Virus record (IMG/VR): IMGVR_UViG_2703719355_000002
Span: 1-12,551 of that record
DNA: 12,551 nucleotides
Strand: one strand, 5' to 3'
From: a virus
Taxonomy: Duplodnaviria; Heunggongvirae; Uroviricota; Caudoviricetes
Shown here piece by piece: positions 10,991-12,496 of the stretch. How positions within the stretch are numbered: the stretch's first letter is position 1; every line of letters starts with the position of its first letter. The notes under the pieces are model-generated. The model did no database searches. It was not told the origin of the DNA and saw nothing but the letters and a program-made list of their open reading frames with translations. The position numbers were made by a program, and so were the translations under genes.

Positions 10991-11197
10991 GTGAAAGCAA
11001 GAGGGATTCGCAAACTCGAACGCGCTCGTAAGCACAAAGAGGCGACAGCAAAACGTAAAAATATTGACCGTGTTTCAATGGTGGTTTCGCTAGCAGGAGC
11101 GAATAGGAAGAAGGTTGAATGTGGTTCGTGCTGCCTGCCAAACGTAGCTCTTTACGCGGCAGGCTACCGGAAATCAAAACAACTGACAGCGAGGTAA
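10991..11197 (+). CDS. Candidate N-like antitermination protein, 68 aa, GTG start, Arg/Lys-rich N-terminus
   Basis: First ORF downstream of PL/nutL; GAGGT RBS 5 nt before the GTG; N-terminus MKARGIRKLERARKHKEATAKRKN resembles arginine-rich motifs of N proteins. Shorter than lambda N (107 aa) and without recognisable sequence identity, so the call is positional. Confidence 0.45.
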   Translation: MKARGIRKLERARKHKEATAKRKNIDRVSMVVSLAGANRKKVECGSCCLPNVALYAAGYRKSKQLTAR

Positions 11198-11199
11198 TT

Positions 11200-11493
11200 A
11201 TGGATATTTCATGTATTGAACAATTACTAATTGAGAAAACGAAAGAAATGCTTGATGTATTGGACATAAAAATATCTGAGTTAAAAGATACACCCGCGAC
11301 ACAACTTATTCTCGAACGTAGTCGAAATAAATTCTTAGAGTTAAGCCCTGACGTTCAAAATATAGCATCTAAACTGCTGGCTACATTGATTGAGAGGAAT
11401 GCATTGTTATCGATGTCATCAGATGAACGAAAAAAACTGGCGAACGAAGATGCTGCAACCATCCGCCAGGCATTCGAAATTTTGTTTTCTTAA
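11200..11493 (+). CDS. Hypothetical protein, 97 aa (start at internal ATG 11200 of track ORF 11119..11493)
   Basis: GAGGT RBS 4 nt upstream; ATG lies 2 nt after the N-like stop. Predicted helical; no family recognised. Confidence 0.55.
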   Translation: MDISCIEQLLIEKTKEMLDVLDIKISELKDTPATQLILERSRNKFLELSPDVQNIASKLLATLIERNALLSMSSDERKKLANEDAATIRQAFEILFS

Positions 11494-11658
11494 TTACTTA
11501 CTGTTTATTCTGATAATCTCATCAAGAATTTTTTCATAAACAACTGTGATTGGCTTTCCGTCAATGCCAGGGGCAAGATTACCGGCTCTGATAAGCTCAA
11601 CAATAATCTGTTGAGCGGCTTCGTGTGGGTTGGTTTTAGGATTAACAATATCTGTCAT
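11494..11658 (-). CDS. Small hypothetical protein, 54 aa (MTDIVNPKTNPHEAAQQIIVELIRAGNLAPGIDGKPITVVYEKILDEIIRINSK), antisense to the PL operon
   Basis: Internal start of track ORF 11494..11814, with AAGAAGGG 7 nt upstream; the longer N-terminal extension runs through the direct repeats and looks non-coding. Confidence 0.4.
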   Translation of the reverse strand: MTDIVNPKTNPHEAAQQIIVELIRAGNLAPGIDGKPITVVYEKILDEIIRINSK

Positions 11659-11672
11659 AACAAAGCCCTTCT

Positions 11673-11719
11673 TTTGACTGTGGAAACAACAGTCTACCCA
11701 TTTCCTTTGACTGTGGAAA
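11673..11719. repeat. Direct repeat: two copies of TTTGACTGTGGAAA (11673..11686, 11706..11719), 33 bp apart
   Basis: Seen directly; located immediately upstream of the minus-strand 54-aa ORF start, so a candidate regulator binding site or promoter element. Confidence 0.5.
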
Positions 11720-11869
11720 GTGAAGGAACCACCGAGCCTGATGTGGTTAAAAGACAGGCATACTAATAAACACTGCACTGTGTATTCATTCCAACGAGTG
11801 AATACACGGAGCAATGTCGCTCGTAACTAAACAGGAGCCGACTTGTTCTGATTATTGGAAATCTTCTTT

Positions 11870-11897
11870 GCCCTCCAGTGTGAGGGCGATTTTTTTC
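11870..11897 (+). terminator. Rho-independent terminator within the PL operon (tL-like)
   Basis: GCCCTC-cagtgt-GAGGGC followed by GATTTTTTTCTG on the plus strand; 18 bp upstream of the next ORF. The reverse complement has no T-run, so it is unidirectional. Confidence 0.65.
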
Positions 11898-11914: not shown

Positions 11915-12283
11915 ATGTCAAACATCAAAAAATACATCATTGATTACGACTGGAAAGCATCAATAGAAATTGAAATCGACCATGACTTAATGACAGAGGA
12001 AAAACTTCACCAGATTAATAATTTCTGGTCAGACTCTGAATACCGACTCAATAAACACGGCTCTGTATTAAATGCTGTATTAATCATGCTGGCGCAACAT
12101 GCTCTGCTTATAGCAATTTCAAGCGACTTAAATGCATATGGTGTTGTGTGTGAGTTCGACTGGAATGATGGAAATGGTCAGGAAGGATGGCCTCCAATGG
12201 ATGGTAGCGAAGGAATAAGAATTACCGATATCGATACATCAGGAATATTTGATCCAGATGATATGACTATCAAAGCCGCCTGA
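11915..12283 (+). CDS. Ea10-like protein (by position upstream of cIII), 122 aa, acidic C-terminal half
   Basis: ORF-track ORF; occupies the lambda ea10 position. The name is positional and from memory of the lambda gene order; I cannot verify the sequence. Confidence 0.55.
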   Translation: MSNIKKYIIDYDWKASIEIEIDHDLMTEEKLHQINNFWSDSEYRLNKHGSVLNAVLIMLAQHALLIAISSDLNAYGVVCEFDWNDGNGQEGWPPMDGSEGIRITDIDTSGIFDPDDMTIKAA

Positions 12284-12355
12284 GCGCGGCGTTACCGCAT
12301 ACCAATAACGCTTCACTCGAGGCGTTTTTCGTTATGTATAAATAAGGAGCACACC

Positions 12356-12496
12356 ATGCAATATGCCATTGCAGGGTGGCCTGTTGCTGGCTGCCCTTCC
12401 GAATCTTTACTTGAGCGAATCACACGTAAATTACGTGACGGATGGAAACGCCTTATCGACATACTTAATCAGCCAGGAGTTCCAAAAAATGGATAA
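12356..12496 (+). CDS. cIII: CIII (FtsH/HflB inhibitor that stabilises CII), 46 aa
   Basis: Hand-translated: MQYAIAGWPVAGCPSESLLERITRKLRDGWKRLIDILNQPGVPKNG, matching my recollection of lambda CIII residues 1-46 including the conserved amphipathic helix; AAGGAG RBS 7 nt upstream. Stops 8 codons short of lambda's 54 aa. Confidence 0.8.
   Translation: MQYAIAGWPVAGCPSESLLERITRKLRDGWKRLIDILNQPGVPKNG

Follow-up and report, generated by a model that had tools for sequence, protein, structure and literature searches.

The segment between 11494 and 11776 of the window (the whole stretch of 12,551 nucleotides of viral DNA that was analysed) is probably a sieB-type accessory-gene cassette, which carries a new cargo and would be controlled in the same way as sieB and sas of phage P22. 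With still higher confidence, its 54-aa minus-strand ORF, called Y in the following, can be regarded as a real gene that is located in the sieB slot under a PsieB-type promoter, with a sas-type RNA overlapping this promoter. Y is probably a new lysogen-expressed accessory gene. It is accompanied by a second small gene, X, which is encoded in the PL direction.

The window, whose plus strand is oriented in the direction of PL, represents the immunity and early-left region of a lambdoid prophage, and its gene order is N, X, Y (on the minus strand), ea10, and cIII. The C-terminal part of the N antiterminator, identified by the Pfam N_peptide family, ends at 11197 of the plus strand. The ORF of the 97-aa partner gene X begins 3 nt past the N stop and occupies 11200-11493 of the plus strand (stop codon 11491-11493). 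Y is encoded by 11494-11658 of the minus strand (ATG 11658-11656, TAA 11496-11494; 54 aa, MTDIVNPKTNPHEAAQQIIVELIRAGNLAPGIDGKPITVVYEKILDEIIRINSK), and the stop codons of the two convergent genes abut. A Shine-Dalgarno-like GAAGGG can be read at 11666-11671 of the minus strand, 7 nt before the ATG of Y, which is the position of the SD in all cassette variants. The ea10/DUF2528 gene, assigned by a family match, follows at 11915-12283 (plus strand), and the distance from the X stop to the ea10 start is 421 bp. This is the gap of about 420 bp between plus-strand genes into which the 54-aa ORF had already been placed correctly by a preliminary description of this DNA. An intact lambda cIII thermoregulator RNA element (Rfam RF01804, 88.5 bits) is located at 12343-12401 of the plus strand, where cIII is also found. 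The ORF of N itself (10991-11197, plus strand) comprises 68 aa from its first start, a GTG, compared to 90-127 aa in the relatives, and only its C-terminal 30-45 residues match the N proteins of these relatives. It may belong to a different N type or be N-terminally disrupted. In relatives of this prophage (L009, 1883-2974; L010, 5608-6325) we also observed an IS605-type TnpB (OrfB_IS605/Cas12f-like) within the PL operon and a HicAB pair between the repressor and N.

In megablast comparisons the homology to other phage genomes is lost exactly across 11480-11725 and resumes at 11726, and the counterpart of 11480-11725 in the matching phages is sieB, encoded on the strand opposite to PL. In lambda, sieB (34482-35036, plus strand) abuts N (35037-35438, minus strand), with ral and ea10 located beyond. 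The RefSeq annotation of P22 lists the sieB promoter at 29690-29720, the RNA start at 29727, and sieB/esc at 29758/29830-30336, antisense to PL. Because the homology break holds sieB in other phages and the maps of both lambda and P22 agree, Y is assigned to the sieB slot of these phages, antisense to PL and between N and ral/ea10. The full Y region is present in six of the 5426 complete E. coli genomes, and the core that flanks it in 957.

Upstream of Y, two identical 14-bp direct repeats spaced by 33 bp had been noted before, and these are indeed the only two exact copies of TTTGACTGTGGAAA, located at 11673-11686 and 11706-11719 (33 bp from start to start). The repeat extends to 18 nt if one mismatch is accepted. 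Allowing up to two mismatches, the window contains two matches compared to 0.14 expected, and two matches were obtained in none of 200 shuffles. The proximal copy (11673-11686), which reads TTTCCACAGTCAAA on the minus strand, covers approximately -2 to +12 of the predicted transcript as aligned to the P22 sieB RNA start at 29727. It would thus form the 5' end of the Y mRNA, with the predicted transcription start, transferred from P22, near 11684. The distal copy (11706-11719, minus strand) spans -35 to -22, and its first six bases, TTTCCA (11719-11714), constitute the -35 hexamer. This hexamer is separated by 17 bp from the predicted -10 TAGACT (11691-11696, minus strand), which aligns with the TAAACT of P22 sieB.

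An alignment of the minus strand upstream of Y with the regions upstream of sieB in P22 and lambda revealed that they are homologous with equal spacing, and the 35-bp core TGCCTGTCTTTTAACCACATCAGGCTCGGTGGTTC is identical in lambda and differs by one base in P22. The -10 of nine cassette variants reads TAAACT, TAAAAT, TAGACT, CAGACT, TAGCCT, TATATT, or TAATCT. A2 and T6 are invariant and T1 is found in eight of the nine, which is the signature of a functional -10; the middle positions vary. A consensus scan of both strands of the region did not detect any sigma-70 promoter with at least 9 of 12 matches, and the Y promoter, having 8 of 12, falls below this threshold. Because there is no consensus match, the assignment of the Y promoter is based on homology, with the position of PsieB taken from the P22 RefSeq annotation. 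By this homology Y is preceded by a predicted, weak sigma-70 promoter of the PsieB type. The P22 promoter itself is said to have been mapped by RNase protection and to be killed by a -10 mutation (work ascribed to Ranade and Poteete in 1993). On the minus strand, the scan of the region identified no terminator-like site after Y.

All variants of the cassette have the repeat at -35 and at +1, and three flavours can be distinguished, ACCCCTACAG in P22 and lambda, TTTCCACAGTCAAA in the window, and TCCCCAACA as the third. The two copies change in concert across the flavours, which argues for a functional link between them. The second copy may serve as an additional RNA seed that pairs with the 5' end of the mRNA, may be bound by a protein, or may have both roles. 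Several other meanings of the repeat region were considered and rejected. A LexA box would have the wrong spacing, a DnaA box matches TTWTNCACA in eight of nine positions but in this repeat flavour alone, and a NarL heptamer is found in the sieB flavour alone. Neither a sigma-54 promoter nor a second tandem promoter nor an upstream mini-ORF is conserved across the cassette flavours, and for a divergent promoter whose -35 would be the TTGACT of the proximal repeat there is no acceptable -10.

The opposite strand of the same region corresponds to sas. The sas antisense RNA of P22 has 127 nt and is found in infected cells only (2026 RNA-seq study of P22 infection, PMC13397905, Table 2). Its 5' end is located two bases outside the complement of the sieB start codon. 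The RNA then crosses the anti-SD, the complements of both repeats, and the invariant core, and its 3' end is reached 16 nt after the core. The plus strand of the window aligns along the whole P22 sas between 11650 and 11785, and the ends of P22 sas place the limits of the sas-like antisense RNA region at 11654-11776 (plus strand). Its 5' part is complementary to the start codon, the SD, and the 5' UTR of Y, and its 3' part includes the second repeat copy and a predicted pseudoknot (see below). By this alignment, a predicted sas-type antisense RNA gene on the PL strand covers the start site of Y. That the repeats are also located inside such an RNA had not been foreseen in the preliminary description. 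A promoter for the sas-like RNA is not evident in the window by the consensus scan, and the RNA may therefore require read-through from PL as well as processing. The sas-like region does not belong to any Rfam family, and a sub-threshold match to RyhB (E 0.86) was judged to be due to chance. RNA folding is striking neither for the leader (z -0.03) nor for the plus strand (z -1.9), with a method that is blind to pseudoknots. Two further elements were observed nearby on the plus strand, an imperfect inverted repeat of 22 nt at 11770-11817, just beyond the sas-like region, and a terminator-like hairpin GCCCTCCAGTGTGAGGGC with a T-run at 11868-11897, directly 5' of ea10. Both are also present in the ral-ea10 interval of lambda.

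Interleaved inverted repeats and covariation predict an H-type pseudoknot in the invariant core (11727-11759, plus strand). The first helix, S1, is formed by AACCAC (11727-11732) and GTGGTT (11743-11748), the second, S2, by GCCTG (11736-11740) and CAGGC (11755-11759), and the loops in the window are CGA, AT, and AAAAGA. The core is found at 29652-29686 in P22, at 34396-34430 in lambda, and also in the 26 species genomes described below (L143-L168). S1 is present in the variants AACCAC/GUGGUU, CCACG/CGUGG, CCAUG/CAUGG, UCACG/CGUGA, ACCCGC/GCGGGU, and CCCAC/GUGGG, and S2 in the variants GCCUG/CAGGC, GCCGGG/CCCGGC, and GCUGGG/CCCAGC. Across 21 distinct sequences, 85.8% of the cells are paired compared to 22-39% if the partners are slid. 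Helix 2 is paired to 98%, six pairs show changes on both sides, and the covariation score of 0.211, compared to 0.144 for shuffles, was reached in none of 500. Four Photorhabdus-type rows of this alignment were out of register and pair fully once corrected. With the register corrected, G-U pairs appear six times and A-C pairs never, which favours a structure on the PL strand. It is this strand from which sas is known to be transcribed, whereas the sieB mRNA begins downstream of the core. The loop lengths on the PL strand (L1 of 0-3 nt, an A-rich L3 of 5-8 nt) would fit a classical H-type pseudoknot, while the loop order on the opposite strand would be sterically poor. The data support the view that the core of the PL-sense RNA is a putative H-type pseudoknot, which has been kept by compensatory changes across at least 15 genera, although two mutually exclusive hairpins could possibly be formed instead. 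The core constitutes the 3' domain of the sas RNA and does not belong to any Rfam family.

Scanning IMG/VR with the core revealed that the cassette precedes lambda-type, P22-type, and third-type SieB, a 164-aa coiled-coil/zinc-ribbon protein in two to three variants, an 84-aa ORF (Z), and Y, and that in some phages it is not followed by any ORF. E. coli PEC41 and F5505 share the repeat region of the window without any difference up to the SD, after which a different gene (Z) is encoded, and a Salmonella Lederbergvirus has the cassette with a cargo ORF of 93 aa. When one genome per species was scanned with the two repeat 12-mers alone, 26 Enterobacterales species were identified, including Proteus, Providencia, Yersinia, Photorhabdus, Xenorhabdus, Serratia, Pantoea, Erwinia, Rahnella, Klebsiella, and Enterobacter. 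Each of these has the order repeat, -10, repeat, AGGAA, and ATG followed by a small gene, and these genes represent many unrelated families. Across the Enterobacterales, at least eight unrelated small genes are located behind the cassette. Since the same cassette fronts SieB variants and unrelated small genes, the repeats belong to the cassette and not to Y. Promoter and antisense RNA are a portable cassette shared by unrelated cargo, and its conservation whatever the cargo would be explained by its double role, as one strand has a PsieB-type promoter and the other encodes a sas-type RNA. The preliminary description had proposed that the repeats are a dedicated regulator site or promoter. The repeats are indeed part of the predicted promoter, at -35 and +1, but they are not dedicated to the Y ORF, because they are also found with other cargo in E. 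coli, Salmonella, Proteus, Yersinia, Photorhabdus, Pantoea, and others, which that description had itself counted as contrary evidence.

The promoter/sas cassette is a cargo hotspot in the 26 species genomes and in four further loci (L142, L101, L136, and L120). One of the cargo families comprises 92-96 aa with the motif VRVEL..DYE.LH and has a weak, sub-threshold match to GhoS (E 0.013). Others are a 68-74-aa zinc-ribbon family, a 67-69-aa family with ESVAYDLALALA, and a family of 155-164 aa with coiled-coil and zinc-ribbon. Five loci (L102, L025, L037, L022, and L077) have kept the core and the distal repeat together with a good -10 (TAAAAT), and in place of the proximal repeat and the cargo they have a CCCCCT...AGGGGG hairpin as well as the 3' end of a PL-sense gene of 120 aa. 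This looks like a cassette without cargo. In the literature searched, there appears to be no description of the breadth of the cassette, the diversity of its cargo, or its RNA structure.

If the cassette is controlled like sieB/sas of P22, the weak PsieB-like sigma-70 promoter on the minus strand would drive Y from the start near 11684, and the same stretch of about 120 bp would encode, on the plus strand, the sas homologue that covers the start codon, the SD, and the leader of Y. In P22, sas pairs with the sieB leader and blocks the translation of SieB, and Esc continues. By analogy, Y would be made in the lysogen, in which PL is repressed. When PL fires, either at induction or during infection by a cassette-bearing phage, Y would be shut off by read-through and by the sas-like RNA, whose duplex with the Y mRNA would extend over the entire 5' UTR, the SD, and the AUG, and X would be made immediately after N. 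The chances seem about even to us that Y is expressed in the lysogen and that, at induction or upon infection by a cassette-bearing phage, it is silenced by read-through together with antisense RNA derived from PL. The Esc part of the P22 mechanism cannot apply, because Y is unrelated to SieB and does not have an internal start. As to the roles of the two proteins, it is only a tentative suggestion that X antagonises Y early in the lytic cycle, Y itself being an effector of exclusion or of an abortive-infection-like response. In other words, our best guess would be that Y is an exclusion or host-modulating factor expressed in the lysogen, and that X counteracts it in the lytic cycle. With similar reserve it could be imagined that the lambdoid prophages of enterobacteria use the cassette of about 120 bp as a general and portable self/non-self switch, with Y as a small exclusion or Abi effector and X as its antagonist. 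Any small effector behind the cassette SD would then be made in the lysogen and would only be silenced by a phage that transcribes the same cassette from PL. The distal repeat would in this case act as a second RNA seed complementary to the 5' end of the cargo mRNA, which would explain why both copies change in concert.

X and Y co-occur in convergent orientation in all 11 contexts that were fetched, and in these contexts the immunity region, the N type, and the downstream genes vary. Exchange has taken place at two junctions, one at the Y SD and the other between the N stop and the X start. X therefore moves together with the cargo, and Y and X would travel as a two-gene unit. The dN/dS of X is 0.09-0.66. 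Word-based searches with X found near-identical proteins alone, and BLASTP gave no alignment of X with the partner in L138, but a shuffle-controlled local alignment is significant, the distant X homologues scoring 73 compared to 26 +/- 4.7 and 72 compared to 33 +/- 6 for the shuffles. Relatives of X adjoin the Y homologue P0006 as well as Z and the 93-aa cargo. X does not match any Pfam, NCBIfam, or PADLOC family. Because the two genes always co-occur and are exchanged as a unit in a slot that belongs to the abortive-infection gene sieB, and because the pairing persists at 61% identity of Y and about 40% identity of X in L138-L141, they might represent a two-protein toxin/antidote or abortive-infection pair, in which Y, produced in the lysogen, harms the incoming phage or the infected cell, and X, as the first product of the pair from PL, protects the phage like Esc does. 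However, X-family partners also accompany the unrelated 84-aa and 93-96-aa cargo, which would be odd for a specific antidote. In addition, neither X nor Y matches PADLOC or a toxin family, and the Y model is a soluble helical hairpin of 54 aa without informative fold match. Such a pair is conceivable but rather doubtful.

The repeats could alternatively be operators that bracket the -10 and are bound by a dedicated DNA-binding regulator, for which X would be the candidate, switching Y off once PL is on. A spacing of 33 bp corresponds to about three helical turns, the copies flank the -10 and vary together in the three cassette flavours, and the 12-mer is conserved across genera. X has weak PHROG matches to HTH and CII-like families (E 0.035-0.09), and in a first sample X-like ORFs were found in 25 of 25 loci of the window's repeat flavour and in none of the other flavours. 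However, in the independent sample of 26 genomes, which had been collected with the repeats alone, an X-like partner is present in only about 10, and the rest have unrelated partners or none. Identical repeats accompany X proteins that are only about 30% identical, and the cassettes of the sieB flavour do not have any partner gene. X was modelled by AlphaFold2 with low confidence (pLDDT 60), too poorly for a structure search, and the location of both repeats inside the sas RNA offers a different reason for their conservation. Given the proportion of about 10 in 26 genomes and the sieB cassettes without partner, X is tied to some cargo and is not a universal reader of the repeats. Operators of this kind are thus improbable, and the sieB/sas-like control by promoter and antisense RNA is the reading that we prefer.

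The Y protein is found in identical form on 171 contigs. The homology and structure searches that had been recommended for the 54-aa ORF were successful with respect to a homologue and a family, but neither the homology nor the fold indicated a function. A word-based protein search found near-identical proteins alone, and tblastn against the phage collection gave chance matches only (E >= 5). An exhaustive HMMER search retrieved one true homologue, P0006 (58 aa, 59-61% identical); three large eukaryotic repeat proteins were rejected as artefacts because their scores are inflated by a PGxDGK-like motif. In other prophages P0006 occupies this slot and converges with a partner of 58 aa, and it is preceded by cTTCCACAGcCAAA and aTTCCACAGTCAAA, 33 bp apart, and the -10 TAGCCT. 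Between the Y and P0006 genes 58 of 162 aligned nucleotides differ, and a dN of 0.29 with saturated dS indicates purifying selection on Y. ORF length, SD, and ATG of P0006 are kept at the canonical cassette position, and Y-like N-terminal homologues are found behind the same cassette in Yersinia and Izhakiella. The sole family match of Y is to PHROG 27767 (E 1e-9), whose function is not annotated, and significant matches were obtained neither in Pfam (E up to 1), NCBIfam, and PADLOC nor in the PDB sequence search and Foldseek (PDB, BFVD). The AlphaFold2 model of Y (pLDDT 83) is a two-helix hairpin with helices at 11-24 and 37-53, for which Foldseek gave no meaningful structural neighbour in PDB and BFVD. 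Y does not contain any internal Met and hence no in-frame internal start. Although some relatives keep promoter and core without an ORF behind, the L008 allele of Y does not show purifying selection (dN/dS 1.27 from 11 differences), and a frameshifted Y copy exists (P0004), it is very unlikely that the Y ORF is untranslated and that the locus is a promoter/sas remnant of a sieB replacement in which the RNAs alone matter, given the protein identity to P0006 at this nucleotide divergence, the retained ORF length, SD, and ATG, the homologues in Yersinia and Izhakiella, and the PHROG match.

The L008 allele, which is located on a Logan contig (SRR9067158), has the -10 CAGACT with a T-to-C change at the first position. 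It contains a sharply bounded block of about 13% divergence that corresponds to approximately 11560-11830 of the window and includes the promoter, the repeats, which are degraded, and the first two-thirds of Y. X beside this block is almost identical, a pattern that points to recombination with an allele that evolves rapidly or is decaying. The frameshifted P0004, found in one NCBI genome, has 50 aa and shares the first 15 residues alone with Y.

In general, the sieB slot is an expression platform and not the home of one gene alone, and behind its conserved cassette at least ten unrelated small cargo genes are found in prophages from Escherichia to Proteus, Yersinia, Photorhabdus, and Erwinia. 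The core together with the repeats is a simple sequence handle for harvesting lysogen-expressed prophage genes, a class that is rich in exclusion and defence, and the cassette supplies a concrete and testable regulatory logic for such genes. The sas RNA, known for 30 years, gains a conserved structured domain that can be tested, and Y and X constitute a co-inherited, uncharacterised gene pair that is worth a phenotype screen.

The locus shares with sieB/esc/sas of P22 and lambda the slot antisense to PL between N and ral/ea10, the homologous promoter region including the position of the -10, the repeats at -35 and +1, and the 35-nt core, and the whole sas-like region can be aligned. However, the cargo is different. 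Genuine SieB cargo proteins match PF14163 at 2.5e-22, but Y does not contain this domain, has 54 aa instead of about 190 aa, and lacks a transmembrane segment as well as an in-frame internal start for Esc. In addition, the repeat flavour of the window (TTTCCACAGTCAAA) differs from that of sieB (ACCCCTACAG), and the extra PL-sense gene X is encoded between N and the cargo. With the cis-antisense RNAs of the pairs OOP/cII, aQ/Q, and sar/ant the sas-like RNA has in common that it is short, is encoded on the strand opposite to its target, and overlaps the site at which translation of this target begins, but it differs from these in its second anti-leader copy and its covariation-supported pseudoknot, and in not belonging to an Rfam family. 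Among the known toxin, antitoxin, and anti-phage defence families of PADLOC, Pfam, and NCBIfam there is none to which X or Y could be assigned. Morons are autonomously expressed accessory genes of lambdoid prophages, a concept of Hendrix and colleagues. Like these, Y is small, runs opposite to its operon, has its own predicted promoter, and shows a patchy distribution with sharp mosaic junctions. In contrast to these, a flanking terminator was not found at Y, and the promoter is not private but part of a shared, conserved cassette that also encodes an antisense RNA. The earlier proposal of a PL-convergent moron with its own expression, comparable to lambda sieB/esc, is nevertheless supported by the location of Y in the sieB slot and by the homology of its upstream region to P22 PsieB. 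The Y locus is of an ordinary kind, a moron in a known moron slot, and it is the cargo pair that is new.
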